A stretch of 64,000 bases of DNA from an uncultured Alphaproteobacteria bacterium (GCA_947367055.1 CANBCI010000003.1:24175-88174); one strand, 5' to 3'. Shown: positions 1-45,165, numbered from the stretch's first letter. The notes: generated from the sequence alone by a model not told the origin. Program-made: numbers and translations.

Positions 1-24
1 AAAAGGCCGAAAAACCGGCCTTGT
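1..24 (-). terminator. Rho-independent terminator for CDS 54..797
   Basis: Minus strand reads GGCCG-gttttt-CGGCC followed by TTTT, immediately downstream of the minus-strand stop. Confidence 0.5.
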
Positions 25-53
25 AGCTAAAACATATAAAAATTTATTATAAT

Positions 54-797: not shown

Positions 798-1388
798 AGA
801 AATATTGGTTTTAAGAACAGGTCTAAATTTATCGATGTTTAAAAATGCTAACGTAGGAATTGGTGGGAAAAGGCTTTGAACATAATCTGTTGATATTTAA
901 ACATCTTTTATGATATCTCTGTTTCCATAACACATTTCTCTCATCGCACTTTGGGTGGCGACCATGTCGTTTATTGCCCTTTGACGTTTCGCAGTAGCAA
1001 TATTTATATCTTTTTTGGAAAGCTGAATGTTTACAAAGAATCTTTTCTTAAAAGTATTTGCGCAACAATCAAACATGTTATATCTCTTAATATGAACTAT
1101 TTTACACCAACATATAATAGTTGCAATTAAATTCTGTGTACTGAACGAGCATATAAAAAATTTAGATCTTCGCGCTAAGGGGCCAATTAGTGTTTTTGTT
1201 TTTTGGGATATCGGAATTTATCTAAGGCACCTTAGGGTTCATTGCCTACCGAAATCATAAAACAACTCCTAGGGCTCCCCACCCGTCCACCACCAACCAC
1301 ACGACCAAGGGGTAAAATGTAGTATTTCTATCTTGAAAAATCTGTTTTTTTACCTATATACATACCGACAATAAAAAAAGGAAAAAAC

Positions 1389-2555: not shown

Positions 2556-2656
2556 ACCATAAGGCGTATTCAGCCAATTATTCAAAAATATCTCACATGT
2601 TTTATCCAAACTAGTAAAATCATTAGGATTTTCAACTCGATACAAGTGAGTTATCT

Positions 2657-2698
2657 CGAGCCAAGTTTTACAAACCGCTCCACCGGGGCGGTTTTTTG
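2657..2698. repeat. Direct repeat copy 1 (cgagccaagtttta[c/t]aaaccgc...cggggcg.tttt)
   Basis: About 40 nt that is roughly 85% identical to 4869..4908. Both copies include a terminator hairpin. Confidence 0.6.
2675..2698 (+). terminator. Rho-independent terminator after KAP NTPase
   Basis: CCGCTCC-acc-GGGGCGG hairpin followed by TTTTTTG. Confidence 0.55.
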
Positions 2699-2848
2699 TT
2701 GGGTTTCCAATACCTGCGCCCGGTTCGATAATTTGTGAATTAAAATCGCAAAATTTACCGAATTATCGAATAAGTTTTATAAAACAACTTGAACTAAATC
2801 ACAAAAAATTTTACCATTATTCCTAATATTAGAGGTAAAATTAACACT

Positions 2849-4108: not shown

Positions 4109-4122
4109 GAAAGAGGTAAAAA

Positions 4123-4782
4123 ATGGTACTTGGAAGTGTCGCTGACATTATAACTGCACTTGGAACTGCCATAATGGCAGCGGTAGCAATTTTTGCCTTA
4201 CGTACTTGGCGGAAAGAATTTGTCGGGAAAAAGAAAATAGAACTAGCAGCACAAATTATGCAGTATGTATACGACATTCAAGATATGTTAATTGGTGTTA
4301 GATTGCCAACAATAGCCAAGACTGAATTAGACGATGCTTATGAATGGATAAAAAGAGAAACAGAACTGCATCCTGGTAACGCTGAAGTATATCCAGAAAG
4401 AGTTAAATATCTAGTTCCCCATAGGAGATTAAGTAAAAAACAAGAAATCATTAATAAATTTCGAAGATTACAGAATCCGGCATATATGTATTGGGGTAAA
4501 GAAATGATAGTGGCATTTGTCAAATTGACCGCTTACAACTTAAAAATTATGCAGGCATCTAAGCAATTATACTACGGTGAAGACACCCCAGAATACAAAC
4601 CATTATATGACATTATATTTTATGAAATTAAAGATAATAAAATGGACCCTAACGATAAAATCAATGCGGAAATCGACACAATTGTTGAAGAATTTAGAAT
4701 AAATTTAGAGCCACTTTATAAAGACAAAAAAACATCATGGAAAGCATTAGATTCAACGGGGAAAAAACAAACTGTCCAATAA
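4123..4782 (+). CDS. N-terminally membrane-anchored hypothetical protein
   Basis: N-terminal TM helix MVLGSVADIITALGTAIMAAVAIFAL. RBS GGAAAGAGGT is 15 nt after the HNH stop, suggesting a likely operon with the HNH gene. Confidence 0.6.
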   Translation: MVLGSVADIITALGTAIMAAVAIFALRTWRKEFVGKKKIELAAQIMQYVYDIQDMLIGVRLPTIAKTELDDAYEWIKRETELHPGNAEVYPERVKYLVPHRRLSKKQEIINKFRRLQNPAYMYWGKEMIVAFVKLTAYNLKIMQASKQLYYGEDTPEYKPLYDIIFYEIKDNKMDPNDKINAEIDTIVEEFRINLEPLYKDKKTSWKALDSTGKKQTVQ

Positions 4783-4868
4783 ATGTTATTCGCTTATATC
4801 AACGCAAATCGTACTATATAAATTTGAAAACAATTCATTAAGTTCCACTCGATAACCGCAAGATTCCC

Positions 4869-4908
4869 CGAGCCAAGTTTTATAAACCGCCCCATCGGGG
4901 CGATTTTG
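4869..4908. repeat. Direct repeat copy 2
   Basis: Matches 2657..2698. Confidence 0.6.
4885..4908 (+). terminator. Rho-independent terminator after HNH/TM operon
   Basis: GCCCC-atc-GGGGC hairpin followed by a T-run. Confidence 0.55.
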
Positions 4909-5041
4909 GTTGGTCGTGCGCATATTTTTTTGCGATATGCCGCAAAATTCGATCGCATCAATATTCTATTGATTTTTGCCATATTATCTGGGAAAATTTT
5001 GTTGCACAGGGTCAAAAATATATTCTGGAAAGGATTTGTAT

Positions 5042-8913: not shown

Positions 8914-11900
<2,987 letters not shown>

Positions 11901-11967
11901 GTTTGATATTATATCACAAATTATCACATTAAAAAAACATAAAAAAACGGGACATTGCCCCGCTTTT

Positions 11968-13752
11968 TTATTCGCCGATAAAACCGCACGACTGCATCCG
12001 CCACAAGCGCGCATAAATTCCGCCGCGCCGCCTTATCAAATCCGCATGCCGCCCAGATTCCGCAACGCGCCCATTTTCCAGAACGATTATGCGGTCTACA
12101 TGCTTTAACGTGGACAGTCTATGCGCGATTATCAGACATGTCCGATTTCGCGTCAAATGTTCAATTGATTCTTGAACAACCGCCTCTGACTGGCTGTCCA
12201 GGGCAGATGTTGCCTCGTCCAGGACTAATATCGGCGCATCCTTTAGAAACGCACGTGCAATGGAAACCCGCTGGCGCTGACCGCCGGACAGTTTTATTCC
12301 GCGCGTACCGACAACGGTTTTGAATCCGCGCACGGTTTTCATGATAAAATCAAACGAATTTGAACGCCGTGCGGCATCCTGAATTTCGCCAAAACCCGCG
12401 TCCTCGCGGCCGTACCCTATGTTTTCACGCAATGTACGATTAAACATCGTTTCATCTTGGGGAACGAACGCGATATTGCGGCGCAGTGAATCCTGGGTCA
12501 CATCACGGATATTTTGCCCGTCAATCAGGATTTCGCCCCGCGTCGGGTCATAAAACCGCATAATCAGCCGGGCCAATGTCGTCTTGCCATTTCCAGACAA
12601 CCCAACAATGCCAATCTTTTCCCCGGGTGCGATTTTCAAATTAAGATTTTGCAAAACATATTCTTTTGCGTCCGGAAAACGAAACGACAGGTTTCGAACC
12701 ACAATTTCACCACGGGCCACATTTAATTCCGGCGCACCTGGCGCATCGCAAATCGTGACGGGGCGCACCAGTTCGCGATACGCGGACTTTGCGCTGCTGT
12801 ATCCCTTGACCATGGCCGGCACTTTTAGCAGCATTTCAAATACCATATCGGTCACGGTTTTATATGTCATGATACAGAACACCGCGTCACCCGCCGTCAT
12901 GTGCCCCCGCATCGCCAGCCATATGCACACCCCCATGCACGCAATAACCGCAAAATCCAAGATATAAGAACTGGGTATCCAGAAATAGCAATCCGCCAAT
13001 TCATGCTTTATTCCGATACGACGCAACCGTTCGCGCGCCGGGCGCAAAATTTCGCGTTCGCGACGCGCGCCCGCAAACAGTTTCACCGTTATGAAATTGG
13101 ACAAACTGTCGTTCAATGCCCCAGAAATATCGGAATGCAAATCAGCCCACTTGTCCGACCATTTTGCCAAAACCGGCATGGAATAAATTGTCCAGATTAC
13201 ACCGATTAAATTAAACCCAAAGAACATTGCCGCCAATAGTGGACTGGCCTGTATCAGCAGTATCGTCGACAATATCACAACACCAAACGAAACGGAAAAA
13301 GAAACCCAGCCCTCTGGCATGCAGGCATAAAACCCCTCGTTTATATAATCCATGTTGCGCGCAATTTTTCCGGGTTCCGTCTTTGAATAAAATGAAATCG
13401 ATTGCGAATTGACATAGGTCTGCAAATCCTCCGATATGTGCATGCGGGCGTATTCCTCTATCTTGCGTTCGAAAAAATAACGCAAAAACCACGCGACATG
13501 CACGGCCGCCATGACCGCGGCAAATCCAACCAGCAACGGCATCGCATACCCCAGCAAATTTTCCACCGGCGGATTCCCAATCCAATCAATTATGTATTTG
13601 CTAAATATCGGGTACAAGGAATACTGAACCAAGCGCGCAAACACCAGCGCACCAAAAAATCCCGCCAGCCAACCCTTTTTCGCAAACAGATATTTCGACC
13701 AAAAACGCCATAACGATTTCGGCAAGTTCGTATTTTTTATATATTTTTTCAT
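11968..13752 (-). CDS. ABC transporter permease/ATP-binding protein (MsbA-like exporter half-transporter)
   Basis: Six TM helices followed by an NBD with Walker A GLSGNGKTTL, signature LSGGQRQRVSIARA and Walker B ILVLDEATSALD. Confidence 0.9.
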   Translation of the reverse strand: MKKYIKNTNLPKSLWRFWSKYLFAKKGWLAGFFGALVFARLVQYSLYPIFSKYIIDWIGNPPVENLLGYAMPLLVGFAAVMAAVHVAWFLRYFFERKIEEYARMHISEDLQTYVNSQSISFYSKTEPGKIARNMDYINEGFYACMPEGWVSFSVSFGVVILSTILLIQASPLLAAMFFGFNLIGVIWTIYSMPVLAKWSDKWADLHSDISGALNDSLSNFITVKLFAGARREREILRPARERLRRIGIKHELADCYFWIPSSYILDFAVIACMGVCIWLAMRGHMTAGDAVFCIMTYKTVTDMVFEMLLKVPAMVKGYSSAKSAYRELVRPVTICDAPGAPELNVARGEIVVRNLSFRFPDAKEYVLQNLNLKIAPGEKIGIVGLSGNGKTTLARLIMRFYDPTRGEILIDGQNIRDVTQDSLRRNIAFVPQDETMFNRTLRENIGYGREDAGFGEIQDAARRSNSFDFIMKTVRGFKTVVGTRGIKLSGGQRQRVSIARAFLKDAPILVLDEATSALDSQSEAVVQESIEHLTRNRTCLIIAHRLSTLKHVDRIIVLENGRVAESGRHADLIRRRGGIYARLWRMQSCGFIGE

Positions 13753-13830
13753 AGCAATATAATCTTACCCCCCCCCCCCGAATTTTGTCAATGGGGAAAT
13801 GAAAAAAGGTGGTTTGCCACCGCCCTTTTT

Positions 13831-15615
13831 TTATTCGCCAATAAATCCGCCCGACTGCATACGCCACAGTCTGGCGTATTCACCGCCGCGCCGTAACAAT
13901 TGCGTATGCGTTCCCGATTCCAATATTTTTCCGTGATTTATAACAACAATCCTGTCCATGTTGCGCAGGGTGGACAACCTGTGCGCGATGGCGATTGTCG
14001 TGCGACCGGCGGACAAATCATCAAACGATTTTTGAATTGCGATTTCCGTCTCGCTATCCAGGGCCGATGTCGCCTCGTCCAGTACCAATATCGGCGCATC
14101 CTTTAGAAACGCGCGGGCGATTGCGACACGTTGACGCTGGCCGCCGGACAGTTTTATTCCGCGGTCCCCAACCATTGAATCATACTTCTTTTCGGTCGCC
14201 GCAATAAATTCGTGGGCGTTGGCCCGGCGTGCGGCGGCGCGAATTTCATTCAATGACGCATCCGCGCGGCCATAACCGATATTTTCACGCAGTGTACGAT
14301 TGAACATTGTCGGTTCCTGGGGGATAAAGGCGATACTCTCGCGCAGGGAATCCTGGGTCACGTCACGAATGTTTTGCCCGTCAATCAGAATTTCACCGCG
14401 TGTCGGATCATAAAACCGCATCAGCAGATTTACCAACGTCGTTTTTCCCGCGCCCGACGCCCCGACTAGGCCAACGCGTTCCCCGGGCTTTATCACCAAG
14501 TTAAAATCACGCAGCACCCATTTGTTTTTATACTTGAACCAGACGTGTTTAAATTCGATTTGGCCGCGCGTAACGACCAATGCCGGCGCATTCAGCGCAT
14601 CCTGTACGTCAATCGGAACAATCAGTTCATCATAGGATTTTTTCGCACTGCCGATTTTATCAACAATGTCCGGAATCATGTCGACAATTGCGCCGATTGA
14701 ACCCATAACGGAAAAATAAACCGATGTAGTAAATACGATTTCACTCAATTTCATTTCGCCACGCACAAACAAATACACACACAGAAACAACGTCGCACCG
14801 TACATTATATCCCAGACAATGCTGGGCACCGCCCAAAACAAACGCTGTACGTATGATGAATAAATTGAGTCACGAATACGCTTTGCACGCGGCGCGCGCA
14901 GATATTCGCGTTCCTTTTTGGCACCGGCAAACAATTTTACAATTGAAAAGTTTGATAAGCTGTCCACCAGTTTCCCCGACAGGGTTGAATATGATTCACT
15001 GGCCTGCTTGGACGCATTGTGCATTTTTTTCATCAGCGCCAGACTATAGACCAAACGAAATGCGAACACGCCCCCCAGAATCATCGCGACATAACGGTTT
15101 ATCCCGATAACCAATCCGACATTCAGCAGCATAATTAGCGTCAGCGCCGTCACCCGAAACAAGCGGTTTACAATAAACACTCCTTCGGAAACATAGTTTA
15201 TCTGGCTGTTGATTTTGCCGGCCATGCGCCCGGTCCAGAACGACATGGATTGATTCTGTGTATATTCGGTCAGAATTTCCGATATTTGATTTTTTATAAT
15301 CGGACTCAATCTTGAAAATAACATATCACGCAGGGTCATACCCAGTGTGAATGACATTTCCAGTCCAATAATCAGCAGCAGTGTCGGCAACGCATGCATA
15401 ATAAACGCCTGCATTCCGGTTACCGGATATTCAAACAATGCGATAAACCACCGCTGCGTCATGGGGAACCACATATTGCTGGAAATAGTCCAAAACATCG
15501 GTATTGACCATGCAATCAACAACGCCCAATGCCCGCGCGCGGCATACGACACGTAAAACCGCCACAATGACTTTGGCAACTGCGCCACAGATTTTGATTC
15601 TTTTGCCTGTTTCAT
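13831..15615 (-). CDS. ABC transporter permease/ATP-binding protein (paralog, likely heterodimer partner)
   Basis: GASGAGKTTL, LSGGQRQRVAIARA, ILVLDEATSALD. The C-terminus RLWRMQSGGFIGE is shared with the neighbouring gene. Confidence 0.9.
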   Translation of the reverse strand: MKQAKESKSVAQLPKSLWRFYVSYAARGHWALLIAWSIPMFWTISSNMWFPMTQRWFIALFEYPVTGMQAFIMHALPTLLLIIGLEMSFTLGMTLRDMLFSRLSPIIKNQISEILTEYTQNQSMSFWTGRMAGKINSQINYVSEGVFIVNRLFRVTALTLIMLLNVGLVIGINRYVAMILGGVFAFRLVYSLALMKKMHNASKQASESYSTLSGKLVDSLSNFSIVKLFAGAKKEREYLRAPRAKRIRDSIYSSYVQRLFWAVPSIVWDIMYGATLFLCVYLFVRGEMKLSEIVFTTSVYFSVMGSIGAIVDMIPDIVDKIGSAKKSYDELIVPIDVQDALNAPALVVTRGQIEFKHVWFKYKNKWVLRDFNLVIKPGERVGLVGASGAGKTTLVNLLMRFYDPTRGEILIDGQNIRDVTQDSLRESIAFIPQEPTMFNRTLRENIGYGRADASLNEIRAAARRANAHEFIAATEKKYDSMVGDRGIKLSGGQRQRVAIARAFLKDAPILVLDEATSALDSETEIAIQKSFDDLSAGRTTIAIAHRLSTLRNMDRIVVINHGKILESGTHTQLLRRGGEYARLWRMQSGGFIGE

Positions 15616-33266: not shown

Positions 33267-33827
33267 TTAAACGGACATAATGTCGTTTTCTTTTTGCTTT
33301 GCCAATGCGTCAACTTCCGCCGCACGCGCATCAAAGACCTTTTGAATGTCGTCTTCAAATTTGCGCTGATCATCTTCGGAAATTTCCTTGTCCGTGACGG
33401 CGCGCTTGATTTTGCCCATTGCATCCTGGCGAATATTGCGCATGGAAATCTTGGCTTCTTCGGCGTATTTGCCCGATACCTTGACCAATTCCTTGCGGCG
33501 TTCTTCGGTAAGCGGCGGCAGATTCAAACGAATAACACCGCCGGCCGTCATCGGATTCAAGCCCAGCCCCGAATCACGGATTGCCTTTTCCACGGCGGCG
33601 GCGTTGGATGCGTCCCATACCGTCACAGACAATGTCTGGTTGTCGGGTGCGGAAACCGTCGCCACCTGGTTCAGGGGCATATCCGCGCCATAAACCGGCA
33701 CGCGCACCCCGTCCAGCAAATGCACGGACGCACGTCCCGTGCGTAACCCGGCGAATTCATTTTTCAAAACTTCAATTGTTTGCAGTGTTTTTTGTTCGAC
33801 TTCGGCCTTTAAGGCTTGATAATCCAT
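33267..33827 (-). CDS. frr: ribosome recycling factor
   Basis: Full-length RRF similarity (LRTGRASVHLLDGVRVPVYG...). Confidence 0.9.
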   Translation of the reverse strand: MDYQALKAEVEQKTLQTIEVLKNEFAGLRTGRASVHLLDGVRVPVYGADMPLNQVATVSAPDNQTLSVTVWDASNAAAVEKAIRDSGLGLNPMTAGGVIRLNLPPLTEERRKELVKVSGKYAEEAKISMRNIRQDAMGKIKRAVTDKEISEDDQRKFEDDIQKVFDARAAEVDALAKQKENDIMSV

Positions 33828-33907: not shown

Positions 33908-33983
33908 GGGGTTGTAGCTCAGTTGGTAGAGCACTTGCATGGCATGCAAGGGGTCGTCGGTTCGAGTCCGATCAGCTCCACCA
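33908..33983 (+). tRNA. tRNA-Ala (GGC)
   Basis: Cloverleaf folded by hand: acceptor GGGGTTG/CAGCTCC with the G3:U70 Ala identity pair, anticodon loop ATGGCAT, T-loop TTCGAGT, CCA encoded. Confidence 0.8.
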
Positions 33984-33995
33984 AGAATGCAGTAT

Positions 33996-34073
33996 GGCGG
34001 GTGTAGCTCAGTTGGTTAGAGCACCGGTTTGTGGTACCGGTTGTCGCCGGTTCGAATCCGGTCACCCGCCCCA
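33996..34073 (+). tRNA. tRNA-His (GTG)
   Basis: G-1 extra nucleotide pairing with C73, anticodon loop TTGTGGT, T-loop TTCGAAT, CCA encoded. Confidence 0.8.
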
Positions 34074-34077
34074 TTAA
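34055..34077. repeat. attL-like: tRNA-His 3' end (23 bp) direct repeat copy 1
   Basis: AATCCGGTCACCCGCCCCATTAA. Confidence 0.7.
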
Positions 34078-34085
34078 AATGAAAA

Positions 34086-34108
34086 GACCACCGCAAGGTG
34101 GTGTTTTT
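34086..34108 (+). terminator. terminator after tRNA pair
   Basis: GACCACCGCAAGGTGGTG hairpin followed by TTTTT. Confidence 0.6.
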
Positions 34109-34233
34109 ATTTTAATCGCGATGTGTATTGGGTTCGAACCGGCCGGTTCGTGTGCGAAGTTGGCGAGAACAAGCATTGCGCAGTTCAAGCCTTACGAGCC
34201 GAAAGGGGCCCATCGCGAAGCGATGGGAATTAC

Positions 34234-34256
34234 AATCCGGTCACCCGCCCCATTAA
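34234..34256. repeat. 23-bp perfect direct repeat of tRNA-His 3' end (copy 2) within a tRNA-like fragment
   Basis: Identical 23-mer preceded by a GGTTCGAA T-loop-like fragment and followed by a terminator-like hairpin (GCCGCCGTTTGGCGGATTTTTT). Confidence 0.7.
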
Positions 34257-34346
34257 GAAAGCCGCCGTTTGGCGGATTTTTTAATGGGTGTGTGGCACCG
34301 TGATGAGATGCGTCCCAATACACAATCCGACCACAATCATAAAAAA

Positions 34347-34376
34347 CTTGAAAAACAAGGATTTTTGTACTATAAT
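34347..34376 (+). promoter_or_regulatory. consensus sigma70-type promoter
   Basis: TTGAAA, 17-bp spacer, TATAAT. Confidence 0.5.
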
Positions 34377-34505
34377 AAAAGCACAATTAAAACCACCGTT
34401 TTTTCGGTGGTATTTTTTACAAGCCAAACCACGCATGGTTCTCCTGATTTTATTTGCACAATTTAAACGGTCGTTTTTATAAAAAATAAAAACAGGAGAA
34501 TAACT

Positions 34506-35657
34506 ATGGAAAATTATCTTAATATGAAAGGCATTATCGATACATTGGCCTCAAATGAATTGAATAAAGACACAAATTTTTCCGGATTCAAAAATATTAA
34601 AGAAAATGGTTTTAATGCGCCTAATGGCATTGATCCTAAAACTTATTATAACAATGAAACAAACAATCTTATTAACATGATTGAACGGGCACGTGAAGAT
34701 GACTCGGATGAAGCAAAAAAATTTTTACAAAATGCCGACTTTATTGGAAAAATATTTGCCGGTGATATTAAAAGCCTGAGCCATATTTCATTATTGGAAA
34801 AAGTTATAGACTCTAAGGCTTTACTTATAAAAGTATTCACTTTTTTAGCATACAGACAATTGCCTAATGAAACAAAATATTATTTGTTAGTAACATTGGC
34901 CAATAATTATGTAACTATAATGCAAGGCGCGGACGCTACGCGCAGATTAGTAAATTTTCTAGTCAACAATGAAATATCGCTAGGTATGCAATCGGAAAAC
35001 GGGCTGACCTATCCCACAAAGGATCAGGTTATACGGATGATTTCCGATTACTTTAATCAAAAACTTGATGCATATTCAAACTATACCAAACAGGAAATAA
35101 GTTGGGATACAACAAGCCAACTTATGAATGACCTTAAGTGGGCATTAAATACTCTTGAAGAAAATTTTAATAAACCAGAATTATTAAATGAGATGAAAAA
35201 AACATATAATGCAGTGTTTAATGCCTCTAATACCAATTATATACCTTATAGGGGGTCATTAGAGCATGACATAGTAGATGCCAGGGAAAAAATAAGAAAC
35301 CTGGAAACAGAACTCAAAAACCAAAAAAGCTTGAAACTTGAGCTAGAAGATAAAATTAAGGGATTAGAAAAAAGTGTGGAATTAAAGACAAAAGAAAAGA
35401 ACAATTATGAAATTGACAACAAGAATTTGACAAAAGCTCTAAACGAACAACGTGGTGAAAATTTTATGCTGAAACAGGCATTGGAAAAAGAACAGCTTAA
35501 GACAAACAAGGCGGAAAATACGGCAACCAAAACACAGGAAAAACTGCAAAAACTAATCCAAGGGGTCGAAAATGTAAAATCCGGCCTGGGCAGTCGCGGC
35601 GTCAATAAATATAAAAAAATGGTTACACAAATCGCTGCACAAACAAAGGAAAAATAA
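34506..35657 (+). CDS. hypothetical protein with C-terminal coiled coil (effector-like)
   Basis: AT-rich, Asn/Lys-rich, long heptad-like C-terminal region (LETELKNQKSLKLELEDKIKGLEKSVELKTKEKNN...). RBS AGGAGAA. Confidence 0.6.
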   Translation: MENYLNMKGIIDTLASNELNKDTNFSGFKNIKENGFNAPNGIDPKTYYNNETNNLINMIERAREDDSDEAKKFLQNADFIGKIFAGDIKSLSHISLLEKVIDSKALLIKVFTFLAYRQLPNETKYYLLVTLANNYVTIMQGADATRRLVNFLVNNEISLGMQSENGLTYPTKDQVIRMISDYFNQKLDAYSNYTKQEISWDTTSQLMNDLKWALNTLEENFNKPELLNEMKKTYNAVFNASNTNYIPYRGSLEHDIVDAREKIRNLETELKNQKSLKLELEDKIKGLEKSVELKTKEKNNYEIDNKNLTKALNEQRGENFMLKQALEKEQLKTNKAENTATKTQEKLQKLIQGVENVKSGLGSRGVNKYKKMVTQIAAQTKEK

Positions 35658-35660
35658 CCT

Positions 35661-35690
35661 AACGCCCCAAACGGGGCGTTTCATTTGTTT
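35661..35690 (+). terminator. Rho-independent terminator
   Basis: AACGCCCCAAACGGGGCGTT followed by a T-run. Confidence 0.6.
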
Positions 35691-36090
35691 TAATACAATT
35701 TTTTCCTTTACTATTCAATATGCTTTACCTATAATCCAAATCGGATTTCAAACGGAAATTTGAAATTCGGGACTTAGAAACTCTAAAAAAAATCGATGTA
35801 AAAGCATCGTTAATCGCATGGCGGTAAAAATTTACCGCATGCCCCGACATCTTTGTCGGGTTGTTGTTAAGCGCATATATTTTATGCGTATGGCAATGGT
35901 ACACCTTGCCCCAAAGTTGCTAAATTCCCGACTGTCAAATAATGTTTGACGGTTTCTTTTTTTCCCGTAACGAAATCCGCACAAAATTAACACCGGACGG
36001 ATGCGCATGTCATATCCAAAGCATGCGAAATTAGGAAAACCGTTTTCTGATTGTTTGAACATCCGTCCAAAAGTATAAGGACAAACCACA

Positions 36091-36945
36091 ATGCGACCGC
36101 CCAAGGTATCGGTACTGACGCCAATATATAACACAAATCCGGAACATCTGCGCGAATGTATTGAATCCATATTGAACCAGACCTTTACGGATTTTGAGTT
36201 TCTGATACTGAACGACAGCCCAGATAACACGGAATTGGACAAGATTGTCGCATCATATGACGACAAACGCATCAAGTATATCAAGAATGAACGCAATATG
36301 GGCATCAGCGCGTCACGCAACAGGCTGCTGGAATTGGCGCGTGGGCAATACCTGGCGATATTTGATCATGACGACATATCAATGCCGACCCGCCTGGAAA
36401 AAGAGGCCGCATACCTGGATGCCAACCCCGATGTCGGTGTGGTTTCCGGCTTTATGGAATATTTTGACGGGGATACGACCCAATCAATCTGGAAAAATCC
36501 TGAACACGATTTGGATATAAAAATAATGATGTCATACGACTGCTGTGTTGCGCACAGCGCGTCAATGATACGCAAATCGGTTTTGGTCAATAACAATATA
36601 AAATACGAAGAATACTATTCCCCGTCCGAAGATTACAAGTTATGGGCGCGTTTAATGGGCGTTACGCATTTTTACAACATACAGGACATAGTTGTTCGTT
36701 ACCGTAATCATGACGCGCGAACCAGTGTCACCAGATGCGATTTAATGACCCGTCAGTGGAAAACAATATCATTAGAAATATGCAACCAGTTTCCGGTATA
36801 TCGCATAGCGCACATGCATCTGGATAAAAACGGCACGACGACGTTTCGGCTGCGTCTATTTGGGAAAATACCTTTGATAAAAGTGAAAAACAACTGGGTT
36901 CAACTGTTTGAATGCATTCCGATATTCAAGATTAAGTGGAATTAA
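36091..36945 (+). CDS. family 2 glycosyltransferase
   Basis: VSVLTPIYN...LRECIESILNQTFTDFEFLILNDSPDN plus DHDD, the GT-A DxD region. Confidence 0.8.
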   Translation: MRPPKVSVLTPIYNTNPEHLRECIESILNQTFTDFEFLILNDSPDNTELDKIVASYDDKRIKYIKNERNMGISASRNRLLELARGQYLAIFDHDDISMPTRLEKEAAYLDANPDVGVVSGFMEYFDGDTTQSIWKNPEHDLDIKIMMSYDCCVAHSASMIRKSVLVNNNIKYEEYYSPSEDYKLWARLMGVTHFYNIQDIVVRYRNHDARTSVTRCDLMTRQWKTISLEICNQFPVYRIAHMHLDKNGTTTFRLRLFGKIPLIKVKNNWVQLFECIPIFKIKWN

Positions 36946-36957
36946 AAGGGACAAATC

Positions 36958-37866
36958 ATGCAAACTGATAAAAAAAGACTGTTTATATTCGCATCTTATG
37001 ACAAGGATAATATTGTTGATGATGCGCTGATGTATTATTTGCAATCATTGTCAAATCTGGGTGACATTGTGTTCACAATGGATAACGAACTGTCGGATAC
37101 CGAACTATATAAAGTGCAAAACATCCCGAACATGCTGCACGCAACGGCGCTGCGCCATGGTGAATATGACTTCGGCTCATACAAACGCGGTTATCAATGG
37201 GCGCGCGAAAATAAAATTCTGGATAAATACGATTGGGTATATTTTGTAAACGATTCCGTATTTGGCCCAATGTTTGATTTGGGGCCGGTTCTTGAAAAAA
37301 TGGAACAAAAAAACGCGGGCAACGCATTCGGCATGATCGGATTGCATAGCGCAAAAGATGAAATATCCAAATATCCGGATCATGTGCAGTCTTGGTTTGT
37401 GGGAATCGTGGCGCCAATTTGCAACGCGCAATGGTTCACAGAATTTATGAATCAAATAACGCGCCAAGAAACAAAGGCGCAAATTGTATGGAAATATGAA
37501 GTGGGACTTAGTCAGTTATTGGTCTCGCACGGGATAAAATTGGGACGCTTTGAAGAAAAGGTCAGCGGCTTAAAAATATATGACGGGTATATTTTGGGGT
37601 TGCCATTTGTAAAAAAACTGGCGCTTAATAACGTAAAATATAAAACGTTGAAAAAATACAGTTCGGTTGGGATATTCAGTCCAATGATAGAAAGCATCAA
37701 CCGTTTGGATTTGCAAAAATCACAATTTAAGCAATTATGGAAAATAAAATTATTTAACAAAATAACAATGCTAATGATGGAATGCCGCGATGACGGCAGT
37801 GAATATCGTCTGTGGATATTCAAAATTATTCCTATTCGTTTTTTAAGATACAAGGATAAAAGATGA
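36958..37866 (+). CDS. putative glycan-synthesis protein (RgpF/rhamnan-synthesis-like, tentative)
   Basis: Operon context between the GT2 and the acetyltransferase genes. Weak recollection of RgpF-like motifs. Confidence 0.45.
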   Translation: MQTDKKRLFIFASYDKDNIVDDALMYYLQSLSNLGDIVFTMDNELSDTELYKVQNIPNMLHATALRHGEYDFGSYKRGYQWARENKILDKYDWVYFVNDSVFGPMFDLGPVLEKMEQKNAGNAFGMIGLHSAKDEISKYPDHVQSWFVGIVAPICNAQWFTEFMNQITRQETKAQIVWKYEVGLSQLLVSHGIKLGRFEEKVSGLKIYDGYILGLPFVKKLALNNVKYKTLKKYSSVGIFSPMIESINRLDLQKSQFKQLWKIKLFNKITMLMMECRDDGSEYRLWIFKIIPIRFLRYKDKR

Positions 37867-38552
37867 AAAAACTATTAAAGAAAATGTTGCGTCGTCGTAA
37901 AACATATTCATTCGACAAAAGTAATCAAATTTTTCGTGGCAATGCAGTGTGTAACACACGTATCAGACATTTGGATATAAACATAAAAGGAAAAAACAAT
38001 AAGATACATATACACGAACACGCAGGATTTGAAATAAAATGCCATATAGATATATCCGGCGATGGTAATGAAATATTTATCGGCAATTCGTATATAGGGA
38101 ACTTTACAATCATAATCAGAAACGCCGACAATTGCAGATGCACCTGGGGCGACAGAACAACGGCGACCGGTGTTCTTATTGTATTTGCGGAATCAGGAAC
38201 AAACCTGACCATAGGTAACGACTGCATGCTGGCCAATGCAGACATACGTGTTTCAGATGGCCATACAATTTATGACATTAAATCCAATCGTGTACTGAAC
38301 CATTGCACCAATCATGTAGTTATCGGCAATCACTGCTGGATTGGTCAAGGATGTCTATTAACCAAAAATGCCAAACTGTGTGACAATATAATCGTTGGCG
38401 CCCACAGTGTTGTAACCAAAGATTTTAATATTCCATACGTAATTATCGCTGGCCAACCTGCCAAAATTATAAAAACAGGCGTTGGATTTTCCGAAGCAGC
38501 ACCATCTGCCTTTGGCGAGTATTATACACAAGATAAAAGTATTGGGACATAA
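37863..38552 (+). CDS. hexapeptide-repeat (left-handed beta-helix) acyltransferase
   Basis: NHVVIGNHCWIGQGCLLTKNAKLCDNIIVGAHSVV hexapeptide repeats. Confidence 0.75.
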   Translation: MKKLLKKMLRRRKTYSFDKSNQIFRGNAVCNTRIRHLDINIKGKNNKIHIHEHAGFEIKCHIDISGDGNEIFIGNSYIGNFTIIIRNADNCRCTWGDRTTATGVLIVFAESGTNLTIGNDCMLANADIRVSDGHTIYDIKSNRVLNHCTNHVVIGNHCWIGQGCLLTKNAKLCDNIIVGAHSVVTKDFNIPYVIIAGQPAKIIKTGVGFSEAAPSAFGEYYTQDKSIGT

Positions 38553-39656
38553 ATGAATAAAAATGTACTTATAACATTATGGTTTGCAGACGGTTTCCAC
38601 GGCGGGGTCAAATATTCAGCTGAATTGGGGAACCATTTGCATTCTTTGGGGTATACAGTATATCTATGTGGCGTTGTCACAACAGATGAGATGGTCGATT
38701 TTTTTGCACAATACAATGTCCGACTATACAACATTAAAAATTTTCCAACAGATATAAACTTTGATTTGGTATGGGCTCATCATTGGCCTATTATGCCATA
38801 TCTTATCAGAAAAGACATAAAATATCGACGTTTGGTAAATTCTTCCATAAGTCAATTTTTATTGCTGGAACGGTTGCTATCGTTTCATGAGAATGTTGAT
38901 ATGTGCATAACATTGGGCCGCCAGCAAAAGCAGTTGTACATAACAAAATACGGAGTTCCCGCCGATAAGATAGAAGTATTGCCAAACATGGCACCCGATG
39001 AATTTTTTGAATACAATTACTCGTCACACGCTATATTACGCAGTATCGCAATTGTCACAAATCATCCGCCACGCGAAATATTGGATTCGGTCAAAAAATT
39101 AAAACGGCGCGGATTTAATGTCGTTATATATGGCGACTGCAAAGGTGGGCGCCCCGTAAACATAACACCGGAAGTATTGGCCAAACACGATGTAATCATC
39201 ACAATTGGTAAAACAGTTCAATATTCACTGGCAATGGGAATACCGGTATATAACTATGACGTATTTGGCGGTAGCGGATACATAACGCCACAAAATATTG
39301 ACGAAGAAGAATTGCATAATTTTTCAGGTCGCAGTCATCGCACCAAAAAAAGTGCGGCACAAATTGTTGATGAAATAATAAACAATTACGAAATGGCTCA
39401 TAAATTATCGCAACAATTAAAAGTCATTGCAAAAGAACGCTATAGTTTATCCGCCAAAATCAACAACATCTTAAAACGATTGAAATCAAAAAAGCCCGTA
39501 AAACACATTATCGAAAACAACACTAACAGGTTCTTATTTGATTATTGTGAAATGGTGGTTTGCAACGGCACTGCCCATAAATCAAAATATTCAAAAAAAA
39601 CTAATGAAAGCAGCCTTGGGCGTCTGTGGCGACATATTCGTACGCGGAAAATATAA
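38553..39656 (+). CDS. glycosyltransferase (GT-B fold, GT1/GT4-like)
   Basis: Start overlaps the upstream stop (ATAAATG). C-terminal half resembles the GT-B nucleotide-sugar binding domain. Low-confidence family call. Confidence 0.5.
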   Translation: MNKNVLITLWFADGFHGGVKYSAELGNHLHSLGYTVYLCGVVTTDEMVDFFAQYNVRLYNIKNFPTDINFDLVWAHHWPIMPYLIRKDIKYRRLVNSSISQFLLLERLLSFHENVDMCITLGRQQKQLYITKYGVPADKIEVLPNMAPDEFFEYNYSSHAILRSIAIVTNHPPREILDSVKKLKRRGFNVVIYGDCKGGRPVNITPEVLAKHDVIITIGKTVQYSLAMGIPVYNYDVFGGSGYITPQNIDEEELHNFSGRSHRTKKSAAQIVDEIINNYEMAHKLSQQLKVIAKERYSLSAKINNILKRLKSKKPVKHIIENNTNRFLFDYCEMVVCNGTAHKSKYSKKTNESSLGRLWRHIRTRKI

Positions 39657-39685
39657 AGACCCTGCAAACGCAGGGTACTTAATAT

Positions 39686-40198
39686 TCATGCGGCAAGTCC
39701 GCAAACACGCCAATACTTTACACTGCCATTGGCATTGCTGGATTGGCATGAAGCGTTCAAAATATTGCCCTGCACGGTAAAGGCGGTTGATGTTCTGTTG
39801 CGAAATGCAAACAGGTTTATATTATTGTTTGCCGTTTGACATTCGCCGCATAAAAACACATGGTAATTTGCATCCGACATTTCAATCGGCATTGTTATCG
39901 TCTGGGCGCTGGTGCGTCCACCTTGTTCCACCCAGCCGGATTTATATTTCCGGTACCATGTGTATTCATTATCCGACGTGGGCGTTTGCCATTCAACCAC
40001 ATAATCTATATCGGCCGGCAATGTGCCGCCCCCGGCTGGCAATGCATCCGCACGCGCCAATGCAATGCCGCCCGGCGTCGCACCGTCGTGTACCCGCAGC
40101 GTCTTGCCGGTTGTATCATAGGTCACCTCGCCTTCTAGGCCGGTGAATTCTTTGTGTTCGTCAGCGTTGCCACGACGAATCTGAATCGCTCTGGACAT
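39686..40198 (-). CDS. phage tail fibre N-terminal domain protein
   Basis: MSRAIQIRRGNADEHKEFTGLEGEVTYDTTGKTLRVHDGATPGG matches the conserved tail-fibre/tropism-determinant N-terminal motif. RBS AAGGAAGGAG. Confidence 0.6.
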   Translation of the reverse strand: MSRAIQIRRGNADEHKEFTGLEGEVTYDTTGKTLRVHDGATPGGIALARADALPAGGGTLPADIDYVVEWQTPTSDNEYTWYRKYKSGWVEQGGRTSAQTITMPIEMSDANYHVFLCGECQTANNNINLFAFRNRTSTAFTVQGNILNASCQSSNANGSVKYWRVCGLAA

Positions 40199-40260
40199 TT
40201 TTCTCCTTCCTTTTGCCCAGTTTTCCGATTGTTTGAAACTGCATAAAAAATTGCGGCGGC

Positions 40261-40778: not shown

Positions 40779-42014
40779 TTACAATACTTGTTGCTCGGCC
40801 GCGGCCATTCGAACAATCGGCGCGACGTATTTCAATTCAGCATCACTGTGCAGAACAATTTTTTCAATTTCGCCACGGCGCGACAATATCTGCAGGCCGC
40901 GATCCACCAACGGTCGAATAAATTCATGCAGCAACCGCCCGTATGTCGCCCCCAATATCCGAACCATATCGGCGTTTCGCGCCAGAATTTCCGTCGCGGT
41001 CATTTCTTTTTCCGACAGCAAGCCCAATCTGTCCGCCAATAATGCATGCCGAATACGTTCGCGCAAATCTTTTAATATCAGTTGCGACACATCAAAGTCC
41101 GCCCCCGACGCCAATGGCGTCAGTCCCGATGACCCGACCGCCTTGGGTATAATTGCGCCCGGTGTCAAATTTATATTAGCCAGGTTGATTACACCGTCAT
41201 CGTCGGCCTGCCATATGCCGGAAACGGCGATTGTCGCATTTTTCAGAACTAGTTCCACTACCTTGTTTGCGGTCTTGATATCCGGCAATGCACGCAACAC
41301 CGGCCCGCGGCCATACATTTCGCCACTGGCGACCGACCAACGGAATATCAAATACGGATTTGTTTCAAACCGCCCGTGCGCAACAATATTGTTTTCAATA
41401 TCGCCGCCGACATCCAACCATGCGGTAAAATCCTGGCCGATCAGGGCTTGGACCAAATTAAGCGGAATCTGCGGGTCTTTTTTTATCGCATCGCGCAGGC
41501 TTGCCGGTGGTGTCCATTCGGGGTATTTTTCCATGACATCCGCGGCCGGCATTGTCGCCGTATGGAACACGGCATCCTTTAATATCGCAATATCCGTCAT
41601 CGGAATTGCGGTAAAGGTGAACGCGGACGCCGCGCCAATCGGGTTTTCTGCCATAAACAGGCACGCCGTACCCAACACAACTAAATCCATATAACACTGA
41701 TGAACAGTCGTATAAAAATTGGAATCATTCAAATTCGCCCGCAACGCGTCCGTTGCCTGGGCGGCATCGGGTGACGCATCACTTTCCGGCATCAGCGATA
41801 TCCACATAGATTCCGGCGGTGTCAGCAACGAATACATTGATGCCGCCAGATTGTCGGCGGCGTCGCTTGCGGTTGCGTCAAACAGCATCGCCACATCATC
41901 GTCGGCCGTCGGCATTGTGTACTTTCGCGCACTGTCCCAGCGGGCAAGCCATGGCGCACGTGCATCCAGCGCGCGTCGATACATCTGTTGCAGATGTTTT
42001 ATGTCATTTGTCAT
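40779..42014 (-). CDS. T7-like head-to-tail connector (portal) protein
   Basis: N-terminus LDARAPWLARWDSARKYTMP resembles T7 gp8 LKNDRAPYETRAQNCAQYTIP. Central E.YGR...TA.EI...PLV blocks also align. Shorter than gp8. Confidence 0.65.
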   Translation of the reverse strand: MTNDIKHLQQMYRRALDARAPWLARWDSARKYTMPTADDDVAMLFDATASDAADNLAASMYSLLTPPESMWISLMPESDASPDAAQATDALRANLNDSNFYTTVHQCYMDLVVLGTACLFMAENPIGAASAFTFTAIPMTDIAILKDAVFHTATMPAADVMEKYPEWTPPASLRDAIKKDPQIPLNLVQALIGQDFTAWLDVGGDIENNIVAHGRFETNPYLIFRWSVASGEMYGRGPVLRALPDIKTANKVVELVLKNATIAVSGIWQADDDGVINLANINLTPGAIIPKAVGSSGLTPLASGADFDVSQLILKDLRERIRHALLADRLGLLSEKEMTATEILARNADMVRILGATYGRLLHEFIRPLVDRGLQILSRRGEIEKIVLHSDAELKYVAPIVRMAAAEQQVL

Positions 42015-42296
42015 ATATTCTCCTTTTTTCTTTGCAAAGAAATGTTGTTTGTATTATGATTCCCATGTCGCCGGGAATTCCGGTGATGGGGTTTGGAAAC
42101 CCGATAATCAGCGTCGCAAACACAACATAACGCAATGCGTCAATTTTGTTATTGCGATGAAAAAATACTCCTGGCACCGGGTCAGGAGGGTTGCGGAATA
42201 TTAAAAATACGCAACACAATTACTGATTAGTTGTTTCCAACCTCCTGACCGTCAAAAAATGACGGTTTTAGTTTGACTAAAACCAGGAGTTTGAAA

Positions 42297-42773
42297 ATGA
42301 AAAAACTGTTATTTATTAGCATAATATTTTTTATGCCAAGTGCCGGATTTGCGCTAGCGGTTGTGGATAGATGTAAAATGTTCTTTTGCATAACAAACCC
42401 GACACGCACCGCCCACTGTGACAGTATTTGCAGCACATGTTCTTCTGGAACAACCACATCAACCACAAACGGTGTCATAACTAAAACGCGAAAAGAACTG
42501 GTATATGACGCATGTCCGACAACAGAAGGCCAAACAATAGATTGCAACTGCGAAACTACATATACTTACTCTTGCGCAGAGGGATATTATGGCACACCGA
42601 ACAATTCGCTGCTCGGGTGCACCAGTTGCGTTAGCGCAACCGGCAACGCAAACGCCACATCAAAAGCGGGCGCAACCGCAATCACTGATTGCTATATACC
42701 AAATGGCACCACCGATACAGACGCCGGCGGCACTTATACGATTACCGGCGGCGACTGCAAATATTCATCATAG
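42297..42773 (+). CDS. secreted Cys-rich, Thr/Ser-rich small protein
   Basis: Signal peptide MKKLLFISIIFFMPSAGFA, 16 Cys. AT-rich pocket inside the phage region. RBS GGAG. Confidence 0.55.
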   Translation: MKKLLFISIIFFMPSAGFALAVVDRCKMFFCITNPTRTAHCDSICSTCSSGTTTSTTNGVITKTRKELVYDACPTTEGQTIDCNCETTYTYSCAEGYYGTPNNSLLGCTSCVSATGNANATSKAGATAITDCYIPNGTTDTDAGGTYTITGGDCKYSS

Positions 42774-43616
42774 TTTAAACTTGGTGTTCGCCTGTATCGG
42801 GCGCGATATAAATCCGCACGCATGCACCGCGGTAAATTCGGCGCATATCGCGCCCGCCACCGCATCCAGACCGTCGTCATGCGTGGTTGCCCCAACCGGC
42901 ATCCAGCCAATCATCTCGGCAATCAAGGGGGTTTGCGTGACGCGGCGGTGCGCATGCAGCCGCCCCGTTGTCAAAACCGGTTCAATTGCATTCAAGATTC
43001 TGTCCGCCTTGTTTGCGTGATTTGCAATTTTATTCACAACAACAGACACGCCGCGTCGCATTGCCGCGTCACGCATTATTTCCGGCAACGCATTTCCGAT
43101 TCCGTTTGTTTCAATCGTTATCCGGCGCATATGGTGGTGCGCCATAAATTCCAAAACCATTTCGCATTGCCGCGCCAACGGGTGCAATTCTTCGTCCCCG
43201 ACAACCAGGTACAGCACATCATGAATATATATATGCCGGTTTTTATCATCACGATATATCATAACGCAGACACTGCCGTCGGATTTTTTACGCCCCGACG
43301 ACGGGTCCCAGTAAATTGCGGCCCCGGTCATTAATGCATCGCCTATCTTTGCGGTGCGCAAATCAAACTCCGCATCATATATGTCCAACGCATCCGGATC
43401 CAGACGCGCCCTGTCAGGGGCAATGTATTCCAGCATCATTTGCGCGGCAAAGTGACGCGGGCCCACAACCTCTCGCAATTGTGCGATTGCAGGCGGCGGG
43501 AATTTTTCCGGCCACGCCGGGTTTCCGGCCGCGTCCACTATTGGAATTTTTAATTTCTGGTAGCCTTGCAAAAAAGGCGTTGAAAAAGCAAAATTTTCAT
43601 ATACTATATTTGGCAT
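42768..43616 (-). pseudogene. phage terminase large subunit, C-terminal nuclease domain fragment
   Basis: RNase-H-like terminase nuclease motifs (VCVMIYRDD..., ITIETNGIG, HDDGLDAVAGAI). No ATPase domain present. Start overlaps the dnaB start. Confidence 0.65.
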
Positions 43617-45165
43617 GGACTTTACTCCAAAAAATTTGCCCACCAATCTGGAAGCGGAACAGGCAGTTCTGGCCGCCGTGCTGATGAACAACCGCGCACT
43701 GGAACGCGTGTCGGAATTTCTAAAGGCGGAACATTTCTCGCACCCCGCGCACCAGGAAATTTACAAACTGGCCGAACGGCAATTTTCGGCGGGCATACCA
43801 TTTGATATAATCACCGCAAAAAACTACCTGGAACAACAGGGCGTGCTGGAATCGGTCGGCGGGGTTGATTACCTGGCCGAACTGTCCGGGGCGGGCGCAA
43901 CCGTTGTCAATGTGGAACAATACGGCCGCATAGTCTATGAAAACGCCCTGCGACGCGATTTGATAAACCTGGGGCAATCAATAACCGACAATGCGTTCAT
44001 CGAAGACCTGGATAATCCGGTTTCGCGCCAAATTGAAATGGCGGAACAAAAATTGTTCGAAATGGCCACCGCCGGCGCATCTGAACGCGAAATATCGTCA
44101 ATCGCAACCGCGTTGCAATCCGCCCTGCAAGAGGCGGAAATCGCCTACAAGGCAGACGGCCAATTATCAGGTCTGACAACGGGCCTGACGGCATTGGATA
44201 AATCAATCAGCGGTCTGCACCATTCCGATTTGATTATCATCGCGGGCCGACCGGCCATGGGTAAAACAACATTGGCGATGAACATTGCATTCAATGCGGC
44301 GTCTGCAATATCGTACGGCCGCGCAAACCCGCAATACAAGGGGGCCGTCGCATTTTTCAGTCTTGAAATGTCGTCATCGCAGTTGGCCGCGCGTGTTTTG
44401 TCGTCCCAATCCAAGATTCCCGCATCCGCAATGCGCGAAGGGAACCTGACCGACGAAGACATGTTAAAAATGTCCCAGTATTCCGCGGCAATCGGAAATG
44501 TGCCGTTGTATATTGACGACACGCCCGGAATGTCTGTGCCGATGATTCGCACGCGGGCGCGTCGCCTGGCCCGCAAATGTGGTGGTATCGCATTGATTGT
44601 GATTGACTACCTGCAACTTATGACATCGCCCGGCGGCAAACGCAATGACAATCGCGTTCAGGAAATCTCCGAAATCACCCGCGGCCTTAAAATGCTGGCC
44701 AAGGAATTGGATGTACCTGTAATCGCCCTGTCCCAGTTATCGCGTAGTGTTGAATCCCGTGATGACAAACGCCCACAGTTGGCGGACTTGCGTGAATCCG
44801 GATCTATTGAGCAGGACGCCGACATCGTCATGTTCACATACCGCGAAGAATACTATCTGGAAAACCGCGACCCGTCACAAAGATTGTCGGGCAACGCAAA
44901 CGCGAACATCATTGAAAGTTATAACAAGCGTCTGGAACGCGCCCGTGACCGCGCGGACATTATCATCGGTAAAAACCGCCACGGCCGTCCGGAAACCGTA
45001 CGCACCGCATTCTACGGCAACTACAGTCTATTCGACAATCTGGACGAGATGGAGGCACGCGGTCAAAACCCGTTTGACGCCGCCGCCACCGCCGCACCCC
45101 AGGCACCGATTGACCAAATCGATAATTTCGATGTCTCCGCAATTCCGGACGACATGGACATGTAA
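43615..45165 (+). CDS. dnaB: replicative DNA helicase DnaB
   Basis: N-terminal LEAEQAVLAAVL domain, Walker A GRPAMGKTTLAMN, and the H2, H3 and H4 motifs. Confidence 0.9.
   Translation: MDFTPKNLPTNLEAEQAVLAAVLMNNRALERVSEFLKAEHFSHPAHQEIYKLAERQFSAGIPFDIITAKNYLEQQGVLESVGGVDYLAELSGAGATVVNVEQYGRIVYENALRRDLINLGQSITDNAFIEDLDNPVSRQIEMAEQKLFEMATAGASEREISSIATALQSALQEAEIAYKADGQLSGLTTGLTALDKSISGLHHSDLIIIAGRPAMGKTTLAMNIAFNAASAISYGRANPQYKGAVAFFSLEMSSSQLAARVLSSQSKIPASAMREGNLTDEDMLKMSQYSAAIGNVPLYIDDTPGMSVPMIRTRARRLARKCGGIALIVIDYLQLMTSPGGKRNDNRVQEISEITRGLKMLAKELDVPVIALSQLSRSVESRDDKRPQLADLRESGSIEQDADIVMFTYREEYYLENRDPSQRLSGNANANIIESYNKRLERARDRADIIIGKNRHGRPETVRTAFYGNYSLFDNLDEMEARGQNPFDAAATAAPQAPIDQIDNFDVSAIPDDMDM

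Follow-up and report, generated by a model that had tools for sequence, protein, structure and literature searches.

The second copy of a 23-bp sequence behind the tRNA-His gene, which a first-pass annotation had read as an att-like scar of a genomic-island insertion, is probably the obligatory 3′ end of a structured module that is linked to the tRNA gene and resembles in layout the RtT repeats of Escherichia coli. The duplication lies within a 64-kb stretch of DNA (hereafter the window) whose frr protein affiliates the host with uncultured gut alphaproteobacteria of the Candidatus Enterousia group. Modules of this type share a general order, which begins with a terminator and continues with an imperfect inverted copy of the last 28 nt of the tRNA in front, a copy of the 5′ strand of its T stem plus TTCG, a family-specific covarying body placed at T-loop position 57/58, and finally a copy of tRNA positions 58-76. 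The AT-rich island farther downstream arrived separately and later, and its insertion cut short the next module.

The repeat pair behind tRNA-His

The features discussed below are as follows (window coordinates and strand):

33908-33983, +, tRNA-Ala(GGC), first of a tRNA pair (ARAGORN; Rfam tRNA, 65.1 bits)
33996-34073, +, tRNA-His(GTG), including the encoded G-1 and CCA (ARAGORN, 33997-34073; Rfam, 68.9 bits)
34055-34077, +, repeat copy 1, the last 19 nt of tRNA-His (34055-34073) plus 4 nt of trailer
34074-34115, +, bidirectional intrinsic terminator behind tRNA-His, with a GC hairpin (34087-34102) between complementary A-rich and T-rich arms
34118-34143, +, head, an imperfect inverted copy of tRNA-His nt 49-76, GCGATGTGTATTGGGTTCGAACCGGC (inverted repeat I1)
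34142-34150, +, GCCGGTTCG, repeating in direct orientation the T-stem 5′ strand of tRNA-His and TTCG (the first four T-loop bases)
34151-34233, +, family-A body, 83 nt (covariance model R1, 142.9 bits, E=5e-37)
34234-34252, +, module tail, the last 19 nt of tRNA-His (58-76, CCA included), identical to 34055-34073
34234-34256, +, repeat copy 2, the module tail (34234-34252) plus the TTAA that starts the next terminator
34257-34308, +, second terminator (hairpin 34262-34275) and 26 nt of a family-B module (34283-34308) cut by the island, 92-95% identical to the start of a complete B module in the related locus L004
34309-40246, +, AT-rich insertion forming the context outside the module, absent from L004 and without flanking tail repeats

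The 23-mer AATCCGGTCACCCGCCCCATTAA has two exact matches in the window, at 34055-34077 and 34234-34256. The first of these corresponds to tRNA-His positions 58-76 plus 4 nt of the trailer. No third copy exists in the 64 kb even when up to three mismatches are allowed, and 100 shuffled sequences gave none. A search with the 14-mer core at two mismatches returned the same two window sites and no others. The T-loop-like fragment that had been reported ahead of the second copy is present as GGTTCGAA at 34131-34138, and terminator-like hairpins occur 3′ of both copies (34087-34102 and 34262-34275), including the second hairpin that had been described after copy 2. The repeat pair and its neighboring features are therefore confirmed where the first-pass annotation had placed them, and they are far beyond what chance would produce. 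The interval enclosed by the two 23-mers measures 156 bp. ARAGORN and the Rfam tRNA model call no tRNAs other than those for Ala and His.

Organization of the module

The intact module spans 34116-34252 on the tRNA strand, beginning 43 nt past tRNA-His and directly after the terminator at 34074-34115. This terminator is nearly identical to the one that precedes the same type of module in the related locus L008. The head forms one side of inverted repeat I1, whose 47-nt arms are 74% complementary, and it could pair either with the tail of its own module or with the tRNA tail across the terminator. The MFE fold pairs 34118-34134 with 34234-34248. The GCCGGTTCG segment and nucleotides 34136-34142 form a GAACCGG/CCGGTTC apex hairpin. 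Because the GCCGGTTCG copy precedes the body and the copy of nt 58-76 trails it, the body falls precisely between T-loop positions 57 and 58 of the tRNA segment that is copied. Within the body, a long hairpin (about 34159-34197) is followed by GAAAGGGG, by a second hairpin (34209-34228), and by GGGAATTAC.

When folded as a single strand in the orientation of the tRNA, the head and tail re-create a helix like that of the acceptor and T stem, from which the body branches out. The window unit by itself is no more stable than shuffled sequence in a single-sequence fold (z = -1.0). No promoter-like site is found within 34078-34233. The unit also lacks the makeup of a tRNA pseudogene, given that nt 49-76 alone are copied, that the D and anticodon arms are absent, and that the body is unrelated to tRNA. 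The tail of a unit usually runs into the same trailer or terminator that follows the tRNA itself, and in the window this second terminator leads into the truncated family-B module, such that the local array consists of an intact A unit and then a truncated B unit.

Covariation in the body

The helices of the body covary strongly. Covariance model R1, which describes family A, recovers 18 strong members, all of them on the tRNA strand and directly behind tRNAs. Although somewhat inflated by the use of a model-fitted alignment, the values for family A in the R1-fitted alignment are 94.2% of cells paired and changes on both sides in 19 of the 31 pairs (73 cells). None of 500 shuffles reaches the observed values, and slid controls yield at most 7 such cells. 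An earlier MAFFT/RNAalifold analysis of family A had identified compensatory pairs at 13 of 31. Family B was assessed with a plain MAFFT alignment that was not model-fitted, and there 97.2% of cells are paired, with 8 compensatory pairs and 0 of 500 shuffles reaching these values.

Some of this covariation tracks the host tRNA. In helix 1, which is the apex hairpin at GCCGGTTCG, a CG to UA covariation follows the host T stem, and helices 1 and 2 of family B likewise covary with the host variant. On the tRNA strand, G-U outnumbers A-C by 19 to 6, and this excess points to the tRNA strand as the one that folds. The structure could equally be read in single-stranded DNA or in RNA.

Units behind tRNA-His in related species

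Our comparison set comprised 80 loci from related species, and tRNA-His was found in 70 of them. An exact look-up of the frr protein for contigs of the same species returned none longer than 1.6 kb. At 37 of the 70 tRNA-His loci, the last 14-19 nt of the gene recur downstream in one to four additional copies, spaced 135-470 bp apart; several of the other 33 loci stop at a contig edge. The extra tails match the tRNA variant of their host (GGTCAC, GGTCAT, GGTCGC, or GGTTAT; AATCC, AATCT, or AGTCC). In L014, the tail carries a C-to-T change by which pairing to an A in the head is restored.

Among the sequences between the copies, at least three body families can be distinguished, named A, B, and C, together with a less common family D. 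Arrays vary among close relatives, and truncated or interrupted copies are common. For example, L004 carries a B unit followed by a truncated B unit, and L008 carries an A unit followed by a B unit. The head and terminator types recombine independently of the body type (L060, L072), and L017 and L009 resemble an empty and a filled site. A search of viral contigs for the body motifs of families B and C gave 0 matches.

Modules behind other tRNA genes

Model R1 also finds A-type units behind tRNA-Ala, where they have a tRNA-Ala tail and also carry GTCGGTTCG (L051, L052, L008), and a degenerate unit resides behind tRNA-Gln in L029. A metagenome scan that used the 3′ domain of the A body alone as the query, with no tail sequence, returned at least 120 stretches. 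A total of 74 metagenome units lie no more than 200 nt downstream of a tRNA gene, and these genes represent 22 isoacceptors, namely His and 21 others. The specificities are Met, Pro (three), Leu (two), Arg (three), His, Ser (two), Lys (two), Gly, Val (two), Gln (two), Glu, and Thr.

The 19 nt that follow the body agree with the upstream tRNA at 18.1 of 19 positions on average across the 74 units, 51 of which match perfectly, compared with 11.1 for non-cognate pairs. The cognate 7-mer comprising the T-stem 5′ strand and TTCG precedes the body in 46 of the 74 units versus 17.5% of non-cognate pairs, and this rule extends even to the unusual GGTCCG of tRNA-Met. The energy of the duplex between head and tail is modestly better when the two are cognate (-10.5 versus -8.8 kcal/mol, p = 3e-6). 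Thus, it is a general rule that the ends of the module are copied from whichever tRNA is located upstream.

The body always follows GGTTCG and contains two subterminal hairpins, after which come about 19 nt identical to the target, and cognate sequence is present on the 5′ side as well. We considered the idea of an IS200/IS605-type element or a TnpB guide RNA, and neither TnpA nor TnpB was recognized by eye in the translations of cargo ORFs. The ORFs near units include, as judged by eye, look-alikes of a metallopeptidase, a histidine phosphatase, a lysozyme-like protein, an HNH protein, a PLD-type nuclease, and an AAA/VWA pair. The same reading of translations recognized no transposase or recombinase among the cargo ORFs beside units.

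Similarity to RtT RNA and to other known systems

The tyrT locus of E. coli carries 178-bp repeats that each end in 19 nt of tRNA-Tyr, and these have been known for decades together with RtT RNA. The 19-nt tail in these repeats was reportedly first described by Egan and Landy in 1978 and by Rossi et al. in 1981. The tyrT operon encodes rtT RNA in one of its repeat units (PMC3318445). Members of the RtT family adjoin tRNA genes in Pasteurellaceae and have been detected on Northern blots (PMC4986893), and the mode of action of RtT RNA was still described as unknown in a 2024 preprint.

As a positive control, we examined the tyrT locus of E. coli K-12, where four units match the Rfam RtT model (RF00391) with 133-138 bits. 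Each unit proceeds through GGGGAAGG, ATGAGAA, C/GCTTC, AAGGTTCGA, the body, and AATCCTTCCCCCACCACCA. The first of these elements is an inverted copy of the T-stem 3′ strand and the acceptor 3′ strand, AAGGTTCGA is a direct copy of the T-stem 5′ strand plus TTCGA, and AATCCTTCCCCCACCACCA is the tRNA-Tyr tail. Both the RtT unit and the window module therefore reside directly behind a tRNA gene on the same strand, are repeated in tandem, and end with the last 19 nt of the tRNA, CCA included, before the same trailer. In both, the 5′ inverted tRNA copy pairs with the tail, which in RtT is the outer helix of the Rfam consensus structure. RtT and the Enterousia modules also share the copy of the T-stem 5′ strand, the motif GGATGAGAAC...GGTTCGA, and a unit size of about 130-180 nt.

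However, the bodies are unlike, and the Enterousia modules have at least three body families. A strong intrinsic terminator stands in front of every Enterousia unit but not in front of the E. coli units. Furthermore, one and the same body occurs behind 22 isoacceptors in the present family, and the host is a gut alphaproteobacterium with a reduced genome. The RF00391 covariance model (gathering threshold 45 bits) gives no match at E<=10 on 33990-34450 and none at E<=1 on 25 related loci, and in the opposite direction the E. coli tyrT locus has no significant match to the R1 or nhmmer profiles. Because no statistical homology was detected, the link to RtT rests on architecture and on short shared motifs. 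The window module is thus described as RtT-like in architecture and not as a demonstrated member of RF00391.

Several other systems are also reminiscent of these modules. The ssrA islands of Dehalococcoides have 20-bp repeats, an insertion point midway along the T loop, and a CcrB-like serine recombinase (PMC3146451). These islands and cis-mobilizable elements resemble the present units in having direct repeats of the 3′ end of an RNA gene and in their tandem accretion downstream (PMC3146451). In those islands, serine recombinases reside beside attL, and the repeats bound many kilobases with integration genes, whereas those of the present units enclose a covarying non-coding stretch of 156 bp that also contains the tRNA end as an inverted copy. 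The classical attL/attR pair of tyrosine integrases likewise places a partial copy of a tRNA 3′ end downstream of the intact tRNA, but here no integrase was found, the copy is split at T-loop position 57/58, an inverted copy is added, and the unit is far too small. The tRNA-like domains of tmRNA and YrlA also combine an acceptor-like helix with CCA, T-arm elements, and a large non-tRNA insert. In contrast to these RNAs, the modules have no tag reading frame, and the identity of their tail changes with the neighboring tRNA.

ARAGORN calls no tmRNA, the Rfam tmRNA_permuted model scores 14.9 bits, and the YrlA model matches just the tRNA itself. No known RNA family besides tRNA is found, with tmRNA_permuted, YrlA, MicX, and others at chance level. 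A by-eye check of the aligned units for a hammerhead, group II intron ends, an integron attC site, and tmRNA tag frames led us to reject each of these candidates because the required conserved positions vary or are absent.

The AT-rich island and the phage remnant

From roughly 34300 to 40000, the GC content of the window falls from about 50% to 36-42%. The closest relative, L004 (about 89% nucleotide identity), follows the window collinearly as far as the tRNA-His region and picks up again at window position 40247, and therefore 34309-40246 is an insertion. Its left edge is located 52 bp past copy 2, inside the second (B) module after 26 nt (34283-34308). L004 has a similar truncated module with a different cut point. 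No copy of the tail is found at the far end of the island, even with three mismatches. Searches for the same island in other species found distant glycosyltransferase paralogues at most.

The frr gene lies upstream at 33267-33827 on the minus strand. The genes of the island are, in order, a 383-aa ORF without a Pfam match (34506-35657), two family-2 glycosyltransferases, one of which is RgpF-like, a hexapeptide acyltransferase, and a family-4 glycosyltransferase. An ORF of 170 aa with an Mtd_N domain is also present in the island (39686-40198, minus strand). Upstream of the first island gene, a near-consensus promoter-like sequence, TTGAAA-17-TATAAT, has a terminator-like hairpin (34392-34411) no more than about 15 nt behind it, and a short leader or attenuator is a possible reading of this segment (34348-34411). 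Another strongly AT-rich stretch, with 30-36% GC, occupies window positions 1-5000, and related species carry glycosyltransferase paralogues about 8 kb from frr on the side of that stretch.

Beyond the island is a T7-type portal gene (40779-42014; PF12236, E=5e-84), followed by a terminase C-terminal fragment, both on the minus strand. This remnant region (40779-43691) adjoins dnaB (43615-45165), and it is kept beside dnaB in L004, L006, and L010 with 72-89% nucleotide identity. Because it is retained in relatives that do not have the island, the remnant is old and lies outside the island. Judged from this conservation, the portal and terminase sequences are an old retained phage remnant and not a recent prophage.

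These findings bear directly on the proposal that the 23-mer pair is the att scar of the island. The AT-rich segment does begin about 50 bp beyond copy 2 and is absent from L004, but the repeats bound 156 bp rather than the island. The distal copy that such a scar calls for is absent from the 64-kb window, and the left edge falls at an arbitrary point inside the second module. A phage remnant does follow, as had been noted, but it is conserved by dnaB in L004, L006, and L010. The suggested signature of a tyrosine recombinase found no counterpart either, in that motif scans and tblastn searches with Xer-type and large serine recombinases revealed no tyrosine or serine recombinase homologue in the window, although very divergent enzymes would escape such searches. 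Moreover, L004 has the duplicated tail without the island, and L008 has an A module without the island, such that the same duplication occurs in relatives both with and without islands, an outcome that the first-pass annotation itself had named as refuting its reading. What survives of the insertion reading, apart from the island itself, is that elements in relatives attach at the end of the tRNA-His tail.

Recombination at tRNA-His tails in relatives

The viral contig L085/L092 ends in an array of A units, and the same phage in its free form (L093-L095) diverges after ...GCACAGTAAGGTGCCCCAT. Comparison of the integrated form in L092 with L093-L095 defines attR and attP and places the crossover in GCCCCAT and not in the T loop. 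An adjacent ORF of 519 aa encodes a large serine recombinase, in which both a Resolvase and a Recombinase domain are present. In L095 (19752-21311, minus strand), the frame of the phage recombinase spans the attP crossover, with the junction at 19851, and therefore integration alters its C-terminus. A blastn comparison of the attP arms of the phage with all loci revealed no similarity.

At a second locus, L068 (reverse complement, 10811-13921), tandem large serine recombinases of 509 and 527 aa abut the tRNA-His tail. This pair recalls the CcrA/CcrB and DsiA/DsiB pairs, the latter from the ssrA islands. No distal repeat was found within 9.7 kb in L068. Serine-integrase elements in relatives thus use the end of the tail as attB. 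Motif scans and tblastn searches for integrases in the 80 loci otherwise revealed just housekeeping Xer-like genes located far off (L014, L078).

Exchange is also evident in the T loop. L021 (reverse complement, 11667-11747) carries a hybrid gene with a tRNA-His 5′ part and a tRNA-Ala 3′ part, joined in the T loop as GCCGGTTCG|AGTCCGATCAGCTCCACCA. The hybrid gene is flanked by two cargo segments of roughly 0.9 kb, each with the same terminator, and it is direct evidence of T-loop to T-loop recombination between different tRNA genes. In addition, 595 bp downstream of the tail are 97% identical between L009 (reverse complement, 10993-11587) and L017 (10811-11405), compared with 78% for core genes. 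The shared segment leads into a PLD-type nuclease gene, and a similarity this high indicates that cargo was recently transferred horizontally at tRNA-His tails. Given the phage junction and the observations at L068, L021, and L009/L017, the tails and T loops are active recombination points, and therefore an origin of the units as miniature integrative elements stays a live rival.

Possible functions and origins of the modules

We consider an RtT-like module the probable explanation for the second 23-mer. If it behaves like the tyrT repeats of E. coli, from which RtT RNA arises, the module would be transcribed by read-through from the tRNA operon. Because it imitates an acceptor helix, a CCA end, and a trailer, it might then be excised by the tRNA-processing machinery. 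Arrays would grow, shrink, and shuffle through recombination between repeated tails, terminators, and T-loop sequences, and the repeated tails may double as attachment sites for serine-integrase elements. The main arguments against the read-through and release step are the terminator before each unit and the lack of a promoter-like site. This RtT-like account is also without an explanation for the presence of one body behind many tRNAs with flanks that match each time.

It is unlikely, though a possibility to be taken seriously, that each unit is instead a miniature non-autonomous integrative element similar to cis-mobilizable elements. A recombinase acting in trans would have put 179 bp (tail, terminator, head, and body) into the T loop of tRNA-His, and the unit would have brought a replacement tRNA end and terminator that displaced the original tail, making the 23-mers attL and attR. 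Such a process would match the Dehalococcoides ssrA islands with their CcrB-like serine recombinase (PMC3146451), and serine-recombinase elements do occupy the same site in L068 and in the phage of L092/L095. The T-loop hybrid of tRNA-His and tRNA-Ala between two cargo genes in L021, the empty and filled appearance of L017 and L009, the differing arrays and common truncated copies in close relatives, and the patchy distribution (37 of 70 loci) are all as expected for a mobile unit. However, a recombinase is found beside units in none of the 80 loci except L068, none was found in the window, and the phage crosses over at GCCCCAT rather than in the T loop. An integrase model also leaves unexplained the inverted copy, the cognate T-stem 5′ strand, and the same body behind 22 isoacceptors. 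Covarying helices are not expected of arms that bind protein as double-stranded DNA, and the E. coli counterpart is a processed RNA.

Two further explanations fare worse. The notion that the pair is a tyrosine-recombinase att scar of the AT-rich island or a prophage is hardly credible, even though the island is absent from L004, starts 52 bp after copy 2, and is followed by phage-type genes. The copies enclose a conserved 156-bp module with no third copy in the window, the left edge of the island lies within a truncated B module at a cut point unlike that of L004, and the portal and terminase sequences stand by dnaB in species that do not have the island, with no integrase found. It is very improbable, too, that the unit is a decaying tandem duplicate of tRNA-His, or a neutral relic without function, that has been kept similar by gene conversion. 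The head, the T-stem copy, and the tail are indeed all derived from tRNA, the tails follow the host variants, and many copies are truncated or interrupted. Yet the body is not derived from tRNA, it is conserved with many compensatory changes across species whose core genes are only about 75% identical, and the same body occurs behind unrelated tRNAs.

A broader and quite doubtful speculation is that RtT-like modules constitute an unrecognized class of tRNA-gene-targeting elements, in which a structured core settles behind nearly any tRNA and copies its 3′ end in both orientations. This might proceed by recombination directed to the T loop. Alternatively, the core might serve as an RNA scaffold and the 19-nt tail as a guide that is identical to the target. 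If modules do target tRNA genes in this manner, then the tyrT repeats of E. coli would represent a fossil left by this process.

The RtT layout now forms a large, diverse, and strongly structured family in an unrelated gut lineage with reduced genomes. With its dozens of partner tRNAs, its three or more body families, and its clear covariation, it offers a comparative handle on the function and the spread of these modules. Duplicated tRNA 3′ ends are routinely taken as att scars, and to do so here would misplace the boundary of the island and invent an integrase. The repeated tails may also represent spare attachment sites for phages with serine integrases.

Other repeats near the same tRNA genes

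Three additional arrangements were seen at these loci. In L023, L020, L024, L042, and L054 (e.g., L023 reverse complement, 10716-10792), a conserved 49-nt insert separates tRNA-Ala from an unbroken 28-nt copy of its own 3′ end, from the T stem to CCA. This is a body-less form of the same kind of duplication. In L025, L077, L045, L008 (the tRNA-Ala unit), L074, L064, L047, and L035, tails are split by hairpin inserts of 28-44 nt or by a D-type body after GGTCACCCG, which suggests nested insertion into tails. Just past the tRNA-His terminator, L036 and L016 carry another kind of repeat, about 140 bp long and bounded by inverted ends, CTGGATTGCCACG...CGTGGCGATCCAG, which is present in two copies in L036 and looks like a miniature inverted-repeat element.
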